Origin: Neodothiora populina
Lineage: Eukaryota
DNA length: 64,000 bases
NCBI RefSeq assembly: GCF_041146345.1
Contig: NW_027191404.1
Span: forward strand, 558,001 to 622,000
Direction of reading: 5' to 3'
The notes beneath the pieces were generated by a model. It ran no database searches and was not told the DNA's origin. It worked only from the letters and a program-made list of their open reading frames with translations. This document shows positions 18,787 to 52,338 of the stretch, one piece after another (position 1 is the first letter of the stretch; every line of letters starts with the position of its first letter). A program made the position numbers and the translations under genes.

Positions 18787-19334
18787 AATTCAAAGCCTCT
18801 GTTCTTTCTGTTGTTGAAGGTTCTTTACATGTAGCGTGGAGATTGATCACGACTTGAATGTGACTCTTTTTCTGTATCCGACCGTAGGCATAAAGGTGCT
18901 TGCGTGCGCAATGATGATCCCATAACTAATCTCCGAAAATAAAAGCATGCCTGCTTGTTCACTTCTAGTAGAGACTAAGGCTGCTAAACCGGACGGAAAG
19001 TCCACGAATATAGCTCTCGTATCATATCAAGAAGAGAATAGAGTCAAGCACAAGACCACGAATCAAGAACAGAGAGGAATTCAAAATTGCCATTCTGCGT
19101 CAAGGGGTATCTCTGCGCAAATAATAAAAGAAACAGAAAACAAAATTCGTAAAAAATGCCAGAGTCTTCTCGTAATCACTAAAGTCGTCCTCACTCCTTG
19201 CGCCTAAGCCTGATGAAGAAGAGGTGGACTACAGACAGCACTTATCTTCCGAGTCCACCTAATGCCCATCGCTGCATATACCTAGGATCAGAGCCGTTGC
19301 TTGCACCAGTCTGTAAAAATTGATCACCCGCTGG

Positions 19335-22300
19335 TTATGTGGAGGGTGGAATGGTATGTACTTTGCGAACTTCCGGCGCTGCACGAGGTTGTGTCAAAGG
19401 TACGGGAGGCTGGTGATGCTGATGGCCGTACTGCTGCTGAGCATGGTCATACTGCCAAGGCAGTCCACCAGCGATATTATTGCGAGCCGCAGCAACTCTC
19501 TCGGCGGCCTTTTCGGCCTCCTTTTCCTTCTTTTGTACAAGAGCCCCTTTTAGACCCGTGAGGTATTTCATGGTCTCTTTCTTCAGGTGGCCTGGTTCCG
19601 TGGATGCGCGGACAGCGGCAATCATTTCTCGCACTTGACTCTCTGAATTGATATGTGGACAAACTCGTGCGGAGCCGTAATGCGCGATGCCGAAGAGGTT
19701 GCAGCGCTCTGTTCCTGCTATCTTGAGCGGACAGCTGCCGAGATGGTGCACCTTTAGACAGGCTACGCATTGCACCATTCGTGGAAGAGGGGCAGACTGG
19801 CTGTGACCGGGCAGTTGACCGCTCGCAGTTGTGGTAGTCAAATGATGCCTTGGAGTTGTCGAGCAGTCATTGAGTACTGGGTAACGGGGTATCTCTGCGC
19901 GTCGGAACACAGGTTCTGTAAGCTTTGATGGCTTCGCCTTGGGCTCGGCTTCCGCTTGCAAATTTTCGGGGACCACATCTTCAGCGTGATCGTCGGCAGC
20001 GCTCTCGACACCGCTTTCGGCTTGGAAATCAGTATCACCGTCGTCACTCCTCTTGCGCGGTTTCTTTGCAGGGACAATCGCTGTCGCGTTGACCGCTTCT
20101 GGTCCTTCTGCACCTTCTGCACCTTCGGCCTCTTCGCCACGCTCTTGGTCTGCCGCATAATCAACCGCCTACATTGTGTTAGTAGAGTCATGATCATAGG
20201 AATATTTGTACTTACCGCTTTGGCGCGACGTCCTCTCCCAAGGAACTATTGGGCTGCCGCAGCTTCTGCTGCTGCAACGCGCTCTCTCTCCTTCAAAATC
20301 CTGTCCCAGACACCAGGATCAGGTGCTGTTTCCTCCGCTTCGGGGGCTTCGTTCAGGGACTCCTCGAGGTCATTGTGTGCCCAGACCCTCGCACGTGAGA
20401 ATGTGCTCTCTGCCGACTTGTCTTCTCCTGCTTTGGTGTGTTCGACCTGACTCGCGTCGAGCAGCTTGTCAATAGCTGCATCGTCGTATTTGATGTCCTG
20501 GTCGCCATCATCTTCAAACAGCTCTGCCGCTCCGTGACGAAGGATTCCCTCGAGATCCTTCTCAGTAGCGTCTTCAGCGTCCATTTGTTCAATAAGAACG
20601 TGATCTAGAGCCATTTTCCTCCTTCCATATTGCATGATCTTCTCTTCCGCACTGGCTCTCGTGACCAGCTGCAGACAGAGCACTTTCTTCTTCTGACCAA
20701 TACGATGCGCTCTACTAAGAGCCTGAATATCTTGATGAGGATTGAAATCGGGATCAAGGACGATGACTGTATCTGCAGTCGCCAGGTTGATGCCGACACC
20801 GCCTGCCCGAGTAGAGAGCAGAAAGGCGAAAAGCTGCGAGTCTGGAGCATTGAACTCGTCGATACGTCTTTGCTTGACCAAACTGCTCAAGGTCCCGTCT
20901 AGTCTTTGGTACTGCATCTCCATACCGTCTAAAAAGTCTTCTACCATGTCGAGCATGCCCAGAAATTGACTGAAAATCAGCACGCGATGACCGCGTTCGC
21001 GCAGTTTTGGTAGCAACCATTCAAGCATTTGGAGCTTGCCGCTTGCTTCAACCAGGTTGCGATGGCTGACGGAATGAGACACATTCCTCTCTTCGATTCC
21101 CTGATTGTAGACAAACGGATGACAGAGGCATTTGCGCAACTGCATCAAAATATTGTTCAAACTTGCTCGTTGAGAGCCTGAGAGCTCCTGGGCGCCACCG
21201 AAGATTGCGCGCAACAAATTAGAGTTCTTGGCCAAAATAGATTTGTATAGCTTCTTCTGCAGAGTCGACAACGAGATTGGCACAATGATCTGAGCCATAG
21301 GTGGCAGGAAGGTTAACACTTGAGCTTTGGTGCGACGAAGGAAGAAGGGTCTGATCATGTCGTGTAAACGAGCAATCTTTGCAGCATCCAGATCCATGTA
21401 CTCTTCGTCCAATTCAGCTGCATTGAAGTCATCGTCTAAGAATTGCAAGAGGTTGAAAAGCTCCCTCGCATTGTTCTGTAATGGCGTTCCGGTCAGCAGT
21501 ACCTTGAACGGCGCCTTGAGCGCGGCCAATGACGAGTACAGAATCGTCTTGTCGCTCTTCAGACGCTGACCTTCGTCGACGATTAGAGCTTGCCAGGGAA
21601 CACACCTGAAGAATCTTCTCGCACTGTCATCCGAGGCACATCCGTACGATGTCACCACGATGTGACATCTTAGTTCCTTGCTGTGGCGAGCGAACAACTC
21701 ATAGCGCATGGTCATGTCTCGGGATTCCTTGCTGCCAAAATAAGCCACAACTCGAAGTGAAGGCGCCCACTTCTTGACCTCTCGGCGCCAGTTGGCGCAG
21801 GTGGAGTTCGGAACAACAACCAGAAAGGGAAAACAGTTCAAGTCTTTGACCATGGTAGCAAGAAATCCAACGACCTGGATAGTCTTGCCCAAGCCCATCT
21901 CATCTGCTAGAATGGCATTCTTTTGCTGGTGCCACTTGAAGTAGAGCCAGTTGAGACCTTCTAATTGGTACTTCATAAGCTCGCCGCCGGTGATGTTCTC
22001 CGGCTGCTTCTTCTTTTCCAATTTGGTAAATTCTGTCGCACGCGCCTTCTCCAGTCGAGACTTCATTGGCTGAAGTTTTGGCTGCTTGACATACTTGCCA
22101 AGCACCCAGTCGTTGTAAGCAGTCACAAAGTCCGTCCAGCGTTCTTCATCATCAGGTGCGGGAGGCCTTTCCCAGACAGCATCCTCATGGCCCAGGCCTT
22201 TGAATTTGATCAATGCTTGGTCAACTTCCCGGATGCGGGCTTTGTCGATTTCCTCTCCAGGCACATCTACGATGCTCGTGTACTTGACGTCGAGCACTAT

Positions 22301-24165
22301 GTCTGTGCGGAGGAAGTCTTCAGGTATGGCGTCCTCAGTGCTCATCTTGGGCAGACGCGCTTCATCACGCTTAGCAAAAGCCTTGCGCATGGCGCCTGCC
22401 GTGTAGCCCCACACCCAAGGACCTGGCATCCACGTTGCTTGAAAGTACGACTTGTCTTGCCAGCGGATCAGATAGGCTTTGTTGTCCTCATCCACCATCT
22501 CGAAGCTGTATCGAGGGTCGTAGCTGTCTTCGTCGATTGGTTTCCAGGCCACAATGCCGGCGACTTTGGCGGGCACAGTGGCACACTCGAGGCACTGCCA
22601 ATCTTGACTGTATTCGCTGAAGCGTTGCGCGGCAGTATCTTCTCCATCTATGTCCATGATACTGCTTGACTTGGTGGCAAGTGTTCGAAGTGGAAACCCC
22701 TGAAACAGCCAGTACATCGGAACATGACATTCGCTGGATTGTCAATGAGGTTCGGATTCACTGAATAGATGGGGTCTTCGCCCCCGTTCTCGTCGCGGTC
22801 TTTCTGCTCCTGTGCCAAAGGCTTTCGTTCACGGAAAGGCGTGCATGATCGACCAGACTTCTTACAGTCGGAGCATTTACCTTGATCTGGGGCAGTGCTT
22901 TCTTTTTTCCGAACAGATGCAACACAACGTCGACATTGGAGCACGAAATCTTTGTGACCGACCTTGGTCACAATGTGTTCTCTGCTAGACCGGTGACTGA
23001 TACAGCTCTTGTGATAAGCAAAGGTACAGCCTTGGCAATAGATTAAGGGAGCAAAATTCGTGCCGTTTCCGCAGGTGTCGCATTGCTGCATATGTCGAGC
23101 GCGGAAGGGGTCTGAGCGAGGGAGTTCTTTGAAATACTCCTTTGCGCCTACGGGCTTAGGTGGCGCCGGACGAGACTCAGACTCGGGTCGGTAGATGTCA
23201 TTCACACCTGGATCCTGCATGTCCCCGTCATATCTAGTAGATCGGCCAGACTGGCGCACACCCTGGCGCTGAGCTTTACGTCTGGGAGCTCTATCCGTGT
23301 CACTGTCATCCTCGTCATCTAGGAATTGGGGCTCGGCATAGGAAGGCATTGAGGAGCGCTTGCGTTTCGTGCGAGGCAAGACGTCAGATTGCAGTACGAA
23401 GCCGTCGTCTTCGCTTGAGCTCATAGTCTCAACGACAGATCTCCGGCCCGATCTTCGTTGCATCGTTTCCCCGGCCGCGTTGGAGCGTAGTGCTCTATCG
23501 TTGTGATTGCGCTCAGGTCGGAGACTGCGCTTACTTTTGCGAAGGCGATGGGAGGACTGATCTTCATCGTCTTCAAGATAGTCAAGTGCTTCGGCTGTGT
23601 TTACATATGCGTGCTGGTTTGGACGGGGTCTAGATCGTGGCCCCAACTCATCACTTTCCCCGTCGTAGTCGTCGGCTGAGCTGACCTGTCCGTCGTTAAT
23701 GTAGAAGTTATTGAGCGCGCTTTGGCCATTTCTGCGTTGTTGAAGCTCGTTGTGTTGCACCTGCTCCTGGTGCCTATCTTCGAACTCGACAAGATAGACG
23801 AGAGCATCTCCAAAATCTCCAATATCAAGTTCTTTGATCACACGACGTACGACATCTCCACCTTCTGCACAATCAACATAATCGTCCGGGTCAAAGGTTG
23901 GGTCCGGTTCAACGACGACCTGTATGTCGAAACGTCGTGGTGCTGTGACTGGTGTTTCCGAAGCTACGGATGCTGATCTCGAATGTGAGTTGACGTGACT
24001 GGAGCGACTAGACACAGTGTTGACTGTCGACTGCCTGATGTGCCTGACCAGAGATTGTGTCACCGCTGGTGGTCGTGCGGGCTGATGGGCTGGTGCGTGT
24101 TGACGCGTCGCCCATTTGCTGATGTCGAGAACCTGCTCGTCATCGCCGGAGCCAGAGGAAGACAT
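19335..24165 (-). pseudogene. mit1: Mit1-type CHD/Mi-2 chromatin remodeler (PHD, chromo, SNF2 ATPase, C-terminal Zn motif). Disrupted as sequenced by a frameshift near 22650-22700 and a TAG at 20246-20248; intron 20215..20169
   Basis: CDTC..CQGC..YHKSC PHD; ILADEMGLGKT, DEGQRLK, LLTGTPLQNN, FLLSTRAGGVGINLATAD, QALSRAHRIGQ. The three ORF-track pieces are colinear parts of one protein. Family identity is confident; pseudogene status is not (assembly error or recoding possible). The extreme 3' end is uncertain. Confidence 0.7.
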
Positions 24166-24600
24166 GGCTGAATAGACGGTGGATTCTTGTACTGCGCCTC
24201 AATGCTGGAAGACGTGTACCAAAGGCAGATCGTTAACTCCGAGACGCGCCAATTGCTTACGAGCCGTGGAGACTATCAAGTCAAGATGTGGTGCTTGGAG
24301 AGAATTGAGGCCATAAGGCTGAGGGAGATCACGATAAGGACTGGCAACGCTTTAGTCCACACAGCAGACGTATATACAGGATGTACGATGGGAGTAGTGC
24401 AATCATAGATAAGGCAGGTACGGAGTACTGGAGGTGAAGGTGGAAGTGAACGACGCGACAGCGAGCCGCCAAGCACAAAAAGTCTCAGGGTCCTCTGATA
24501 TCAAGAAATACCTTCATACTGTTGTTTCTATACCTACATTACTGTACTTGCATATATTATACTGTGCATGATATTATACTTGTGGTTACTTCTCATTGCT

Positions 24601-44721: not shown

Positions 44722-47700
44722 TCATAGGAGTATGGCAAACAAGGCGACATTCAGTGCTCCCAACAATAAGGAGCTGCCGAGTCGTTTATCAATGTTGGTT
44801 GTAGCGCTTCCTTGTAAGCTGGCATCGCCACTTCCAGTCTGCCTCGCGCCTCCGGCTCCAGAATCGGTTCGCGTGAGGCTCTGCGCAGTGCTTACGCTGA
44901 CTGAGGTGGCGGTGGAACCACGTCCTCTGGTCAAGGTAGCAGGGAACAACGTCTCGAACTCTGTTCTGGAAACGATCCCGTCGGAACCGACATCTTCAAC
45001 GACCAGCACTGTCGCACTGGCGCTTAGAGAAATAATATACACACTTCCATGTAGGGTTTCGGTAAGTGCGGGACCACCAGGATGCAAAGTCTTGCCATCC
45101 GGAAGACGGTAGCTGGGCCCCGGACCCGGGAGAGCAGTGAAGATATCACCACCAATCGTGATAAGCGGAGCCGCTGGTTGTGCGGTGGCAAACGCGGTCG
45201 GCAATGCTGATGTGGTCACTGCACCGGATACCACTTCGACAAGTGTCTTTCCATCGGGCGATAGGGATACTGTCTCTAGACCGTTTGGTCCAGTGAAGAT
45301 GACACTACCGCCAGGTGTGAGCAACTTGTCCGACACTAAGTAGCTGGTTCCACTGCCTGCTTCGGGTGTGATGATCTGCCCATCGACCGTTATCTGAGGC
45401 GCAGCCGTGATGGTGGGAGCGGCTAGGATTGCTGATGTCTTTCCGTTGATAACAAAATATGTGCCATCGGGCGAAAGAGAAACAGTCTCCGTAGTGCCGT
45501 CCTGCCCGCGTAACATTATGGTGCCTCCTTCCGTAAGTGTTTGCCCGGAGACGACATAGGTAGGTGGGGTACGTCCAGAAACAGCGGTATAGACTTGTCC
45601 GTCAATCGTCAAAGGCCCTGGTGTTATGGTCGCTGCTGGAGACAGCGTTGACGATACGCCATTGACGACCAAGACTGACCCGCCTGGAGACAGTGATACA
45701 GTCTCCACTCCTCGAGCGCCGTTCAGAGTCACCACACCACCACCGGTCAGTGTCTGCCCAGATATGATGTAAGCTGGGTTGCTGTCCACATCAACCGCGC
45801 TGTAGACATGACCATCCAGAGTAAGCATCGGTAGTGTTGCGGCAGCAACTCCAGCGGATGCTATGGTAGAGGTCACGCCATTGATTATAACGATACCACT
45901 ACCAGGTGCTCCCAAGGACACAGTCGTCACTGATGAGCCTGATTGTAGAGTAATCGCCCCTCCAGGTGTAAGCGTATAGCCATCTACAACGAAAGTCGAA
46001 CCTTCTTTGCCAGTGATTATATTGGTTCCAATTGTGAGAATAGGAGAGCGTGTTGTCAGGGGTGTAGCTGCCACAGGTGTCAAGGCCTGAAGAGTTCTCG
46101 TAACGCCATTGACTACAATCGCGGAGGCACCACTGGCTAAAGACACCGTCGTACCACTGACAGTGATTACACCGCCAGGAGTCAGTTTCTGGCCTGAGAT
46201 ATCATACGTCGAGCCCATGTTTGGTTGATAAACCGTCCCAGCAATGGTGAAAGGAGGTGCCGGTGTGACTATCGGAGGAGATAGCGTTTGGGTGACTCCG
46301 TTGTACACCGCGACCTGTCCGTTGGGCCCCAGACTAACGACTGTACCACTTATCGTCGCTGTACCACCAGGGCTCAAAACATTGCCCGGGCTCAGCAAGA
46401 ACTCAGTGGCAGCATTCGCAGTAAAGGTCATGCTGTTTATGGTCAATGCCAACGGGCCTGATGTTGTAGATAGTGCTAACGTTGAGGTCTTGGATCCGTC
46501 GATTATTAAGGCTGAAGGAGCCAGAGAATACTGTGTTCCATCAAGAGTGATGGGACTTCCTCCTGACATTAATGTTTTGCCACCTTCCACAACGTATGCG
46601 GACGTAGGAGCGAGTGCGACTGTTTCGCCTGCAGCTCGGAAGGTTGTGGGTGAGCCAAGTGCTGCTGTGCTGATAGTACTGCCATCAATGACAAGGGCGT
46701 CGTTAGAACCAACGTACACCGCCTTATTATGTATGGTGACTGTTTGACCGGGCTGCACCAGGGTTCCATCCACTGCATAGACTGGAACAGCAATTTGCGA
46801 TACGGTAGCGCCGCCGATTGTGATAACCCCAGGCATATTTGAGCCAGCATTGCTACCAGAGGATCCTCCATCAGATCCGATTGTATTGGGCGAAGAAGCG
46901 AAAGTATGAGTTGCACCACCCACAACAACCGCGGTACTTCCTAAAGATATAGGAGTTCCTGAGACTGTTATGGCAGGTGCGCCAGGTACTAGAGTCTGAC
47001 TGCCAATAACAACGTTAGAAGAAGGACCAATGGTGGTCTTCGAATCTCCAATCGAGACTGCTATAGGGAGCAGGATATTGTTGGACTGTCCTTGATCGTT
47101 GTTGTTGTTGTTGTTGTTGTTGTTGCTGCTGCTGGCACCATTACCTGATTGACCCCCATTGCTCCCACTGGAGCCGGCAGATGAATCAGAACCTCCACTG
47201 CCTCCAGATCCACTGTTGGAAGCCCCGCTCTGCGAAGATCCTGCTCCTGAGCCCCCCGTGGTTTGCGCGCCGGGCTGAGCCGATTGCCCTACTTCGCCAA
47301 TAGCTGAGAACAAACCACTCAGATCCGGACTTTGTTGCGCAGGGATGCCATAGCCATTTGATCCTGTCCCTCCGTTTCCGGAGGTTCCACCTGAGCCTGT
47401 ACCGGTGCCTCCAGTATTGGCGTCGCTGTCGGAAGTGGAGACACCACTACCGGAACCGGAACCAGAACCAGAACCACCAGAATTTGACCCTGAAGTACCG
47501 CCATTCGAGCCTGTTCCTGCACCGCCTGAAGCAGTGTTGCCGCCTCCTGTGGCTGATCCCCCGTTGCCTGATCCAGAATTATCCTTACCACTACCACCAG
47601 CTGACGCAGACTGAGTGTCGACACCAGATTGTATCGCGGAGAAAATGCCACCAATGCCACCAGAATCGACTTTGTTAGTCGGGGTTGATGTCGGCTGTAG

Positions 47701-50130
47701 GTTCGGAACCAAGACTGCACTGGCTGTCACTACAGTTCCACCAGATATCGTTGTAGTTATCTGCCCATCAGCGTTGGAGGGAGCCAGGAAGGTGGTTGGC
47801 TGCCGATTAACAACAGCAGTAAAGGGAATGATTACCGGGTCGCTCACCGTGCCCGTAATTCGTGGAAGGGTGGTGGGCTTAGGCAAATCCAGACTGGGGT
47901 TTGCCTGTTCGGTCTGTACAACTAATGCGCTGCCAGTAGGTGCAATGTATTTACCACCGGTCGGAGTAGGTAACATGAGTGAAGCGGCTGAGGAGGCGAC
48001 CTGAGGCGTCATGGTAATTAATCCTTCAGATATTGGTCCTGGGGTGGGGATGAGGAGTACAGTAGCTGATGTTTCAACACTGGAGGCGGCAGAAAAGGTC
48101 TTGGGAGCGGTCGACAAAGACTGGGAAACAGCCGACTCGGAAGCGGCAGGCTCTGTTGCAGTAACCGCAAGGACAGCTACTGCACCATAAACTTCCTCGA
48201 CCACTACAAGAAGCGTAGGCTCGGCGACGAACGTCCCGAGTCTAATCCTGGCGAGATTCAAATGCAAGGCACTAAGCTCGCTAGCAAATTCAGCCGGTAA
48301 GTCACCAACCACCTCGGTCTGCCCAGCTGGGTCTTCCTGATCATAGTAGATGGCATATGCTGAAGGGAGAGTGTGTATGGCTCGAGACGTATGGCACACA
48401 TTAGATCCGTTGCGAGCCTTGGTAGGTTTCTCCATATCAACAGCAAATTCAGAGAAGTACACAAAATTTGTGTTTGTCATAGCAGTCGAGGCGACTGCAG
48501 ATGGTCCCGGGAGTACGGTGCTTGCCGGTGCAGGAGTCACGATTAGATCTGAAGGCAACGCGCCTGTGCCTGTCGAAACATTGAGCTGCTGCGTTGCAAC
48601 CTGTGTTATGACAGCGGTGCTAACATAATCAGGAGGTGGAGTGCTGTAGTTGTATTCATATTCGAGAGATGAATTAATCCAGGTATTGAACTCGCTTGTA
48701 ACACTAGTAGCTGGCGCGGCTAAAGCACTTGTAACATTGAAAGTCGTAGTGGCATCTAGCACAGTCCATCCAGTGTAGCTATCATTGGTGTCAAACTGAG
48801 CTGAGATGGTAGCAGCGACGAAGTCAAAGTCAGTAGTGTACCACCAATTCAATGTCGCGTTTGGGATGTTGATGACAGTGCCTCCACAGATGCTGATGTT
48901 AGAGGTCTGGTTCCCTGATGTTAGTGGCGGGGGGTAATCTGAAGCAGTTCCAGGCGGTGACGCAGTGCCAGAGAATGTTATTCCTGAAGGTGCAGAGGTG
49001 ATACTGCTGTTCACTGCCCCTGAATGTCCACCACTAGCACTGGGGAAGAAGCCGCTCGCAACAAAGGAAGATCTGTACGAAGACGCGGATGACGACGCGT
49101 TGACTGAGTTGACGATCCATCCTGAGCTGGCCGCTGGATATGCCGTTGGCCATATGGTCGGACTAGGCGCGCCACTCTGAGCAAAGGTAGGGCCTGACAT
49201 TGGCAGAGTCGCATTTGACTCAATTGCAGACCCCAAGTGGGCAGGGACTAAAATCGGACTTGTCTCCTTCGCAGAGGACGTCTCGTTAGTGCTGGCGGAT
49301 ATTCCTAGAGGAGAGGGAATGGCATTTGTCGAGCCAATATGCGACGAATTAAACGCTCCGGAGGATGGACTAGTCTGAGCGGAAATTGTTGTCACTGAAT
49401 TTGCCTGCCCGAGTACAGATTTAATACTGGAAGTCTGTGCTACCAGGGATGAAGGGGATGATCCAGAAGACGCGAAGAGCCAGTACGAAGCAGTAGCTAC
49501 TTGTGAAGCTACCGGCACAGCCACAGAAGTGGTCGCAGACGACACTCCCTGGAGCCCACCAGCATCAGAACTTTTTGCAGAGCTGTGACCTAACGCTGAC
49601 AACGGCAAATTCGATCCCACCCTCCCGCCACCAGGTATCGATGTCCATACCGAAGACTGGTTTTCCGTTGTGTTGCTGAAGATAGGTCCACTGGATGTGG
49701 ATGTCTGGATGGTCGGGGCAGTCACGGCGTTCGATTCTGTTTCTGGGGGAGAATTTAGAGAAGGCTGGTCAGTCGTCGCTACTGCAGTCTGAGCATCGAC
49801 CAAACTCGATGAACTCCGCGCAGTTGCAGCCGAGGGATTGACAGTGTCCGTCGAAAGAATGCTTGACGAACTCGTTTTCGAAGTTGAAACGCTTGAAGAT
49901 GATACAAGACCTGCATATGCATTTGAAGATGTCCCATCTTGGCTGGATGCTATACTCGAGGAAGGAACACTCGAAGTGTTTGTTGCTGAAAATCCTAGAT
50001 CTGTGGAGACGATTGTGCTCGACGTTGATGTGATTGAGTAGTTCCAACCGGAAGATTGTCTCTGATCAGAAACACCACATGAACACGTTGATATCAGTAG
50101 GGCTGCGATAGTAACGGTACGCAACGTCAT
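44722..50130 (-). CDS. 1802-aa secreted Ser/Thr-rich mucin/adhesin-like protein, probably GPI-anchored, intronless
   Basis: Signal peptide MTLRTVTIAALLISTCSC; Ser/Thr-rich stalk; Gly/Ser linker; about 10 TLTPGG-type repeats; hydrophobic C-terminus after a small-residue site (QGSA). Confidence 0.88.
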   Translation of the reverse strand: MTLRTVTIAALLISTCSCGVSDQRQSSGWNYSITSTSSTIVSTDLGFSATNTSSVPSSSIASSQDGTSSNAYAGLVSSSSVSTSKTSSSSILSTDTVNPSAATARSSSSLVDAQTAVATTDQPSLNSPPETESNAVTAPTIQTSTSSGPIFSNTTENQSSVWTSIPGGGRVGSNLPLSALGHSSAKSSDAGGLQGVSSATTSVAVPVASQVATASYWLFASSGSSPSSLVAQTSSIKSVLGQANSVTTISAQTSPSSGAFNSSHIGSTNAIPSPLGISASTNETSSAKETSPILVPAHLGSAIESNATLPMSGPTFAQSGAPSPTIWPTAYPAASSGWIVNSVNASSSASSYRSSFVASGFFPSASGGHSGAVNSSITSAPSGITFSGTASPPGTASDYPPPLTSGNQTSNISICGGTVINIPNATLNWWYTTDFDFVAATISAQFDTNDSYTGWTVLDATTTFNVTSALAAPATSVTSEFNTWINSSLEYEYNYSTPPPDYVSTAVITQVATQQLNVSTGTGALPSDLIVTPAPASTVLPGPSAVASTAMTNTNFVYFSEFAVDMEKPTKARNGSNVCHTSRAIHTLPSAYAIYYDQEDPAGQTEVVGDLPAEFASELSALHLNLARIRLGTFVAEPTLLVVVEEVYGAVAVLAVTATEPAASESAVSQSLSTAPKTFSAASSVETSATVLLIPTPGPISEGLITMTPQVASSAASLMLPTPTGGKYIAPTGSALVVQTEQANPSLDLPKPTTLPRITGTVSDPVIIPFTAVVNRQPTTFLAPSNADGQITTTISGGTVVTASAVLVPNLQPTSTPTNKVDSGGIGGIFSAIQSGVDTQSASAGGSGKDNSGSGNGGSATGGGNTASGGAGTGSNGGTSGSNSGGSGSGSGSGSGVSTSDSDANTGGTGTGSGGTSGNGGTGSNGYGIPAQQSPDLSGLFSAIGEVGQSAQPGAQTTGGSGAGSSQSGASNSGSGGSGGSDSSAGSSGSNGGQSGNGASSSNNNNNNNNNDQGQSNNILLPIAVSIGDSKTTIGPSSNVVIGSQTLVPGAPAITVSGTPISLGSTAVVVGGATHTFASSPNTIGSDGGSSGSNAGSNMPGVITIGGATVSQIAVPVYAVDGTLVQPGQTVTIHNKAVYVGSNDALVIDGSTISTAALGSPTTFRAAGETVALAPTSAYVVEGGKTLMSGGSPITLDGTQYSLAPSALIIDGSKTSTLALSTTSGPLALTINSMTFTANAATEFLLSPGNVLSPGGTATISGTVVSLGPNGQVAVYNGVTQTLSPPIVTPAPPFTIAGTVYQPNMGSTYDISGQKLTPGGVITVSGTTVSLASGASAIVVNGVTRTLQALTPVAATPLTTRSPILTIGTNIITGKEGSTFVVDGYTLTPGGAITLQSGSSVTTVSLGAPGSGIVIINGVTSTIASAGVAAATLPMLTLDGHVYSAVDVDSNPAYIISGQTLTGGGVVTLNGARGVETVSLSPGGSVLVVNGVSSTLSPAATITPGPLTIDGQVYTAVSGRTPPTYVVSGQTLTEGGTIMLRGQDGTTETVSLSPDGTYFVINGKTSAILAAPTITAAPQITVDGQIITPEAGSGTSYLVSDKLLTPGGSVIFTGPNGLETVSLSPDGKTLVEVVSGAVTTSALPTAFATAQPAAPLITIGGDIFTALPGPGPSYRLPDGKTLHPGGPALTETLHGSVYIISLSASATVLVVEDVGSDGIVSRTEFETLFPATLTRGRGSTATSVSVSTAQSLTRTDSGAGGARQTGSGDASLQGSATTNIDKRLGSSLLLGALNVALFAILL
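47098..47124. repeat. (GTT)9 microsatellite encoding poly-Asn
   Basis: Nine perfect GTT units giving N9 in the mucin ORF. Confidence 0.95.
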
Positions 50131-52338
50131 TATGCTGCTGTTAAATAGCGAGTGTAGAATTTGAGCGAGTGTTCATGGCGACAATTACAGCAGAATTGAA
50201 TCACAAAGTAGGTATCACAATCGCACGAAAGGAATGAAGCGCGACGAACATAAATGCAAGTAAGCAAACGTGAGACCGAACGATACGAAGCCTGACCAGG
50301 CTGAGGAAGAGGACTAGGAAAGTAGTGGATTCAAAGGTACTTGGAAGTTGAAGGTACGGTTTCTAGACAGCACCAGGATTGCGCCAAGATTACCAGCCCG
50401 ACAGTGAGGATTGACGGGCGTTGCGACCCGCCCTTGTCACTCGCGTGTATGTGCGATATTCGAGACACCCGTCCGCGTAGCGATGCACTGCGAATCATGT
50501 GAGAATCATATAGAGTGGAGACGGGCAGCCTGATTTAGCATCAGTCTCAAGGACCCCAGACGGTTGATTACTGGGTCTCCCTGGCAGACTAACGGCCGGA
50601 ACTCCGACTAGCGCCACTAAGCACTACTTGACTCGGCTTGACAGCAGGTAGGTTCGACTTCAGCGAGCTGAGATCCAAGACAGACCTGCGTGAACAACAC
50701 CTGAACAGGGCGTAATAATGTGTTGGATGGGATGCATACGAGGAGCATCTCACCGTATATTGGTCATGACCTCACGAGCTTCGTTGGGCCTGTACAGTGG
50801 TGTCCCAGTCCTGCGGGAGCAGGTTTGGCAAACCACAAAAAAAAACCCCGGTGCTACACACAGTACCTTGCCTCGCTGTATGTATGCGGGGTATGCAAAA
50901 ATACCCAAGCCAAGGTAGTTGCATTTGCGTTTGTGTTCTGGACCTCAGCATTATCACCTTTGTACTGTTCAAAGTAGTAGGCAATGACGACGGCCACAAT
51001 ATTGTCTGGTTTGCAAGGATCAGACTCCCCCAGTCATCATGCGACTAGGTTCTCCTGCACGATTGTGGTATCTAGTAAGATACTGATCGACTCCAAGGGT
51101 TCAACATGAAGGAAGCGTGATGCTGAATATCGTGATCAGGTCCGAGGGGTGCTTTAAGCATAAAGTATAGAAGCAAATCTGCTCTCCCTGTGTCAAGGTA
51201 CGTTGCGTGTTTCCGTTGCATTCCATATTGCGGCTGTGTTTGCAAGCATAACGTCGGTGGTCAGCAAAGTATAAATATAACAAGCATCCTTGTAGACGGC
51301 GACGAACCTAGCGCGTTCGCCAGCTTGTATATGGTAAGGTACCTTGCCATGCTCACGACTTACGGAATAGACTTTCGTTCGCGATGAACGTGTGGATCAC
51401 AATGGGCCGATGGATGATGCAGTGTATATCATAGTGATGCGTGCGATGGTTCATGGGCAGATCTTCTCGAGATTCTCATCACAGCTATGTAGGTAATAGA
51501 GTAATACTTGTTTTTTGCAGTATGATGTCGCTGCTCTGTACCCCGAAGACTACAAAGACTGTACAGTACAGGACTGCACTGTCGTGGAACGGCACGAGTT
51601 CCTATTAAGGAATGGGTAGGCGAAGTGCCTGAAGCCAAGGAAAGCACGAGCGAGAGCAGGGACTCGATGTAAATCACTGTGTACCTACCTTAAAGAGTCG
51701 TCGATAAGGTCCTGCCTTGTCCGCGGGGTACAGATTTTTCCTTGGAGCATCGAACCATGATAATCTCTGTTTTATTGAATTATGTCTCTGAGGGTAGAGC
51801 TCAACGTTCTGCATCGGACAGATCGTTGTTGCAACTACAACAATGTTACTCCTATGAGACATGTCGCTCATCCAGCAACGAAAATCACGGTACAGAGAAG
51901 CCAATCTACTGCAGAGTAGCTCGACACTGACCACATCGTATTCCTGATCCTGCACTATCCCGTGAAAGGAATAGGGCTGATGCACTCGGGTACCCGGTGG
52001 TGAGTACTGTACCGCAAGCTACCGTACAGTACCTAAGGTCTGTACCCACAAGCCACTGAATGGGCAAGGTAGGGAGGATTACCACCCTCCGATGGCGCCC
52101 TGCGCGACGGGAGGGATGCCACGCTATGAAACATGTACCGTAAGGTAAGGTAGGTGACTTGACGGGTTCCTGCCATTGTGTAGCCTTGACTCAAACCTCT
52201 CGTGGCTGACAGGAATGCGGCTTTTTTCACATTTTGATATCTTCAATTTCGTGCCAATTCGCCGATATATGTTGTCGCAGCGCGGCTTTTGATGCGCTCC
52301 ACTTGTTGCTGAGCGCCGACTCCGAGTTGCCTGGCAAG

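Follow-up and report, generated by a model that had tools for sequence, protein, structure and literature searches.

The window, a stretch of 64,000 nucleotides, carries on its minus strand a gene for a Mit1/CHD3-type remodeler, which opens with an ATG at 24165-24163, closes with a TAA stop at 19337-19335 and has a conceptual length of about 1594 aa when both of its breaks are read through. The extent of the gene, the three stop-to-stop open reading frames (ORFs) over which it is spread and its sole confirmed intron are as follows:

19335..24165, minus strand: whole Mit1/CHD3-like gene, placed by the alignment of relative P0005, which starts with residue 1 at 24165, and by Pfam domains
24198-22648, minus strand: stop-to-stop ORF 1 of the gene, 516 aa, with DUF7141 and a PHD/FYVE-like zinc finger (Pfam)
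22741-20246, minus strand: stop-to-stop ORF 2 of the gene, 831 aa, with Chromo_MIT1, SNF2-rel_dom and Helicase_C (Pfam)
20168-19335, minus strand: stop-to-stop ORF 3 of the gene, 277 aa, with the Mit1 C-terminal Zn finger 2 (Pfam)
20169..20215, minus strand: intron of 47 nt (GTAAGT...CTAAC...TAG), skipped exactly in a contig of sequencing run X2

N-terminal to the ATPase, a zf-PHD-like finger (PF15446, E = 1.6e-60) is found in frame 0, which covers profile positions 1-142 of 170 only; the remainder of this finger (QDWQCLEC) is encoded in the -1 frame. The MIT1 chromodomain (PF23615, E = 2.3e-30), the SNF2-related domain (PF00176, E = 2.6e-64) and Helicase_C (PF00271, E = 2.7e-22) were likewise recognized by Pfam, as was PF18585, 'Chromatin remodeling factor Mit1 C-terminal Zn finger 2' (E = 3e-20), in which one ligand Cys is replaced by Phe. 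When the PHD region was used as query in a protein database search, 405 of 436 candidates passed the threshold of E ≤ 0.001. Wherever a source is named, the 120 matches listed are of Dothideomycete type throughout; the closest relative among them, P0003, shows 84% identity, and for proteins named as Aureobasidium the value is about 75%. The name 'chromatin remodeling factor mit1' is borne by several database relatives. The protein searches covered lengths of 904-2580 (first search) and 457-1455 (second search), and in neither length range was a protein of the same species found in the database, be it a model of this locus or an intact allele, the best match showing 84% identity. Judged by its domains and its named relatives, the gene is assigned to the Mit1/CHD3-type remodelers of a Dothideomycete fungus.

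A functional gene of this kind should run in one uninterrupted frame through all domains. Here, the frame is broken twice, by a frameshift at 22672 and by a TAG at 20248-20246. The sites concerned, together with that of the altered zinc ligand, are:

22670..22673, minus strand: frameshift site, at which the frame-0 Pro codon CCA ends at 22672, the first base of the downstream-frame AAG
22648..22650, minus strand: TAG that closes frame 0 past the shift, giving an N-terminal product of about 505 aa
20246..20248, minus strand: in-frame TAG within the conserved AAAAQ*FLGRGRRAK, behind which the motif GRGRR goes on in frame
19692..19694, minus strand: Cys to Phe exchange (TTC) at a zinc-binding position of the C-terminal zinc finger 2 of Mit1

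At the first break, frame 0 reads ...FRCTGCFRGFHFEHLPPSQAVSWT and ends at the TAG at 22650-22648, while the -1 frame reads ...KSSSIMDIDGEDTAAQRFSEYSQDWQCLEC... from 22672 onward, into the chromodomain and the ATPase. When four relatives are used as tblastn queries, each aligns in two segments that lie in different frames and meet at 22663-22705; for P0005, residues 1-526 correspond to 24165-22672 and residues 516-1345 to 22705-20213. All 120 relatives among the matches listed cross the junction in a single frame and none requires a shift. Continuity was established by a simple motif in 105 of the 120 and by a pattern for the whole junction in 112, and the other eight were inspected and are also continuous. 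The relatives' motif, ...FH-x2-H-L-P-[PS]-[KR]-S..., lies in one frame, and the closest relative reads FHFEHLPSKSNSIMDIDGEDTAAQRFSEYSQDW at this position. Compared to the relatives, the window sequence has one base fewer, inside the Lys/Arg codon that follows HFEHLPP. To characterize this position, the window sequence was aligned with 53 relatives of at least 1500 aa (54 sequences in total), in which Lys or Arg occupies the break column in 47 of 53 (21 and 26 relatives, respectively), with Leu in five of the others and Val in one. The original prediction of a Mit1-like gene split by a frameshift is thus borne out by the reading of the frames, the tblastn segments and the in-frame relatives, and its placement of the missing base in a Lys codon agrees with the residues that the relatives show at the break column.

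Three public sequencing runs (X1, X2 and X3) contain the stretch, and their Logan contigs were aligned to 19300-24300. X1 and X2 share one sample, possibly the source of the assembly, and hence allow the work of the assembler to be checked independently, though within one strain. The DNA run X1 yields a single contig (50,877 letters, depth 30.3) that agrees with the window at every position compared. X2 provides a contig of 4,965 letters (depth 9.84) that covers 19300-20167 and 20215-24079 with no other letters, its sole gap being a 47-base skip bounded by CT..AC on the plus strand, which corresponds to GT..AG in the direction of the gene. The label of X2 is 'DNA?' and none of the runs is recorded as RNA, so that the transcript-like status of the contig is derived from the exact GT..AG removal and from its gene-sized length. 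Because exactly the 47-nt GT..AG intron is removed, the X2 contig behaves as a spliced transcript. From 20215 to 24079 it contains no gap and carries both the frameshift and the TAG unspliced. Since it passes unchanged through the lesions, the break can be due neither to an indel of the assembler nor to an intron, and editing of the message is excluded as well. At its 5' side the X2 contig reaches as far as 24079, short of the ATG at 24165; a separate contig of 302 letters (depth 2.6) spans 24058-24300.

One candidate intron at the break was considered and rejected. Removal of a 23-nt GT..AG stretch (22670-22648, minus strand) would restore the frame and give LPPNGEDTAAQRF. The stretch is, however, kept in the spliced X2 contig and is also far shorter than both the confirmed 47-nt intron and the two canonical introns found elsewhere in the window. 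Because it is retained in the transcript-like contig, its ability to restore the frame is a coincidence. That no intron bridges the break, as had been stated beforehand, is in line with the gapless passage of this spliced, RNA-like contig.

The TAG and the loss of a Cys, both of which had already been mentioned in the original prediction, are real. At 20248-20246 the TAG replaces a Glu/Gln column: the relatives read AAAAQQALGRGRRAK or similar in this region, and among the 53 aligned relatives the column is occupied by Glu in 37, Gln in 10, Ala in two, Lys in two, Asp in one and Arg in one. The column directly after it holds Ala in 47 of 53 relatives and Phe in the window sequence alone. A metagenome scan gave one further relative, L001, which is 87% identical over residues 110-822 and has CAA at the TAG site and TGC at the Cys site; the L001 contig stops short of the frameshift junction. 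At the Cys site, the C-terminal finger of the window sequence reads CNLFGIAHYG with TTC at 19694-19692, and Cys stands at the position of the Phe in 27 aligned relatives as well as in L001 (TGC).

Between 20243 and 20248 (minus strand), the TAG and the adjoining TTC (Phe) differ from the CAA GCA of L001 at five of six bases. From the comparison with this one relative, the site looks like a local cluster of changes rather than a single point mutation.

The third run, X3, stems from another sample and another study. It provides three short contigs, which cover 6 of 30 bins and outside of which the frameshift and TAG sites lie. Over these three contigs X3 differs from the window at two positions in total. 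The first difference, A to C on the plus strand at 19693, affects the middle base of the codon and changes TTC to TGC, i.e. to the ancestral Cys. The second, at 23186, exchanges Pro for Leu at a position where the relatives have Ser or Asp. The Cys to Phe lesion is therefore polymorphic between near-identical sequences and, at least as far as this lesion is concerned, specific to the lineage of this strain. As the near-identical X3 sequence keeps the zinc ligand, its Cys codon argues that the decay is recent and belongs to this strain's lineage.

These data also bear on the possibility that the frameshift is an assembly or sequencing indel and that the real gene is intact. The missing base falls in a short run of A (CCAAG compared to CCAAAG), and indels in short A runs are an error class known from long-read assemblies. 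Against such an error stands the fact that the Logan contigs of two runs, X1 and the spliced, transcript-like X2, match the window exactly over the whole gene, so that the disabling lesions are seen apart from the assembly; the extra base by which the original prediction proposed to recognize an assembly indel is found in neither of these contigs, which come from the same sample. Moreover, a nonsense substitution and a zinc-ligand missense change are present as well, neither of which is produced by indel errors, and the difference of the other-sample contig at the Cys codon reflects real sequence variation. We thus regard an indel error as very improbable. Contigs drop minority variants, and a second allele present at a low share could go unseen in a comparison of this type. 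The agreement of X1 and X2 speaks against an assembler error only and is compatible with a mutation confined to that culture; as both runs possibly represent the assembly's own sample, the allele is documented for that strain and not for a second one.

Sequence constraint on the lineage was evaluated from the alignment and from a tree of 16 sequences over 1079 gap-free columns. Unique changes at otherwise invariant columns number six in the window sequence, all of them conservative, compared to at most four in any of the 53 relatives. In the tree, the terminal branch of the window sequence measures 0.147 compared to 0.092 for its sister P0003. In Tajima comparisons more lineage-specific changes fell on the window sequence in nine of nine cases, with a chi-square of 9.5 in one of the nine and of 0.1 to 3.8 in the other eight; the excess is significant with only one of three outgroups. 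These values are suggestive of, and not conclusive for, relaxed constraint on this lineage, and such a modest acceleration would fit a short time since the loss.

Upstream of the break lies a sequence that could in principle provide another way of joining the two frames:

22693..22699, minus strand: in-phase heptamer G_GGT_TTC (G_GGU_UUC in the message), part of the codons for Arg-Gly-Phe and within the two-frame overlap

The in-phase G_GGU_UUC is present where the original prediction had located it, and apart from GGGTTTC at 22699-22693 no in-phase XXXYYYZ occurs among the 2806 codons checked (both gene parts and two neighbouring ORFs). Programmed -1 frameshifting at this heptamer would join both frames into a functional remodeler, a possibility for which one may point to its unique, in-phase position inside the frame overlap and to the fact that the mRNA carries the shift unedited. 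The comparison with the relatives, however, speaks against it. The two-frame arrangement is conserved in none of the 120 among the matches listed; all 120 are in frame, and hence there is no ancestral frameshift signal. The heptamer merely encodes a conserved Arg-Gly-Phe, and among 112 relatives the Arg-Gly pair reads RG in 71, RA in 38 and otherwise in three, the 38 with RA being unable to form the heptamer, since Gly is replaced by Ala. For the 123 nt downstream of the heptamer, pseudoknot-free folding predicted no stimulatory structure (minimum free energy -29.1 compared to a shuffle mean of -30.97, z = +0.52), in accordance with what had been noted before; 144 of the 200 shuffled sequences reached an equal or lower free energy. 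Slippage at the heptamer would, as anticipated, also replace the probable zinc ligands in HFEHLP: HFEHLPP would become PLRTLAT, with the loss of one His that is invariant in 54 of 54 sequences and of a second that is present in 53 of 54. In addition, the later TAG would demand a second recoding event. At the true break (CCA CCA AGT) no slippery sequence is found. Canonical -1 frameshift sites of viruses and cells combine X_XXY_YYZ with a downstream structure; the present site resembles them in having a canonical in-phase heptamer in the overlap, but differs in that no structure is predicted, the shift is unconserved and the product would lack conserved zinc ligands. Programmed frameshifting is without support, we consider it extremely improbable, and the heptamer is judged to be coincidental. 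This agrees with the original prediction, which had called recoding speculative and had named in-frame relatives and an unconserved heptamer, both of which were found, as the observations that would speak against it.

A weaker variant, in which the chance heptamer, 21 nt upstream of the deletion, lets a few ribosomes slip into the ATPase frame, is conceivable. The allele would then be a hypomorph that makes small amounts of a remodeler with a damaged PHD finger and a truncated C terminus; the N-terminal fragment of about 505 aa, as the abundant product, could titrate HP1, provided that an N-terminal HP1 binding like that of fission yeast has been kept. Rather than a simple null, the locus would in that case be a naturally arisen heterochromatin allele of dominant-negative or hypomorphic type. 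We regard it as a highly unlikely course of events.

A further possibility is that the function is retained elsewhere, either by an intact second copy or allele, or by separate pieces, i.e. the N-terminal fragment and a chromodomain-ATPase protein initiated at the ATG at 22657. The persisting transcript, the location of the lesions between domain blocks and the in-frame position of this ATG, five codons past the break, could be taken in its favour. Ribosomes are, however, not expected to initiate about 500 codons inside a eukaryotic mRNA, which counts against a separately translated ATPase part. The middle piece would, moreover, be devoid of the C-terminal domain, which binds Clr1 in fission yeast (PMC6499331). 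With regard to a second copy, no second contig of at least 85% identity was found among the X1 or X2 contigs aligned to 19300-24300, and the X1 contig extends over 50.9 kb without a break and with even depth. What other X1 and X2 contigs do contribute are pieces of 33-35 letters only, which match 21882-21916 in the SNF2-related part with two to four differences and then diverge; these probably represent other SNF2-family genes that share a conserved ATPase motif, not a second Mit1 copy. An intact, more divergent paralogue may conceivably exist elsewhere in the genome. Taken together, retention of the function in one of these ways appears unlikely.

Hence, we interpret the locus as very probably a young pseudogene or strain-specific null allele of a fungal Mit1 (SHREC/Mi-2-type) remodeler that is still transcribed and spliced. 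Recent loss of function had been offered by the original prediction as the simplest reading, and three independent lesions, present in both the DNA-run and the spliced contigs, support it together with the in-frame relatives; from these observations we infer that a functional remodeler is absent and that the loss is recent. Mechanistically, the loss of one base from the Lys/Arg codon after HFEHLPP cuts the PHD-like zinc finger in two and puts the chromodomain and the SNF2 ATPase out of frame. Ribosomes that start at the normal ATG should stop at 22650-22648 and yield at most an N-terminal fragment of about 505 aa, in which the PHD-like finger would be incomplete. Were the frame to be regained, translation would still end at the TAG at 20248-20246, ahead of the C-terminal zinc-finger domain. 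This finger, which on the model of fission yeast would be the end that binds Clr1, has in addition lost one of its zinc-binding Cys residues. The transcript is present at a k-mer depth of about 10, i.e. the gene is not silent, and the N-terminal fragment may for this reason conceivably have a function of its own.

According to PMC6499331, which cites Sugiyama 2007, Creamer 2014 and Job 2016, Mit1 of Schizosaccharomyces pombe is the remodeler of SHREC, in which its N terminus binds the HP1 protein Chp2 and its PHD domain binds histone H3, while its C-terminal domain binds the scaffold Clr1 and thereby links Mit1 to the deacetylase module. The gene described here shares its Pfam domain order with this CHD/Mi-2-type protein, i.e. 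a PHD-like finger, the MIT1 chromodomain, the SNF2 ATPase with Helicase_C and the C-terminal Zn finger 2. In contrast to S. pombe Mit1, however, the present copy is broken by a frameshift and a TAG, lacks a zinc-ligand Cys and contains an N-terminal DUF7141.

With respect to its decay, the locus resembles unitary pseudogenes and strain-specific fungal null alleles, as disabling lesions are found in a conserved single-copy gene that is intact in the relatives and still transcribed. Compared to fungal unitary pseudogenes there is nothing unusual about it; lesions are few and the acceleration of the rate is modest, which suggests that the loss is young. The locus is thus an ordinary young pseudogene in kind, of modest interest as a naturally occurring mutant in a conserved remodeler of heterochromatin. 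In the Dothideomycetes sampled, Mit1 orthologues are conserved throughout (405 proteins at E 0.001; 120 of the 120 matches listed in frame), and a natural strain without a working copy would therefore represent a ready-made mutant, offering a route to what the remodeler contributes, outside fission yeast, to heterochromatin, to gene silencing and to the control of transposons. Among the matches listed in a literature search, which was judged by titles only and is a weak basis, no title on natural Mit1 loss was found. In annotation, this locus is best marked as a pseudogene, and neither a model with an invented intron nor its citation as a recoding candidate would be appropriate.

The neighbouring genes had been described as intact in the original prediction. 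The flanking ORFs are long and ordinary in their domains and encode a 918-aa PPR protein, a 571-aa SpoU-type methyltransferase, Cdt1 and Rrp4; others nearby code for chitin synthase, for a MOSC protein and for a ribosomal protein of the L22 type. At 44722-50172 (minus strand) lies an open frame of 1816 aa, larger than any other in the window, for which Pfam gave no match at E ≤ 0.001. At two other places in the window, around 31258 and 52973, ORFs of at least 250 aa on the same strand abut in different frames. Both of these junctions contain canonical introns with GTGAGT or GTAAGT donors and CTGAC or CTCAC branch sites, which indicates that broken frames are not a general feature of this assembly.
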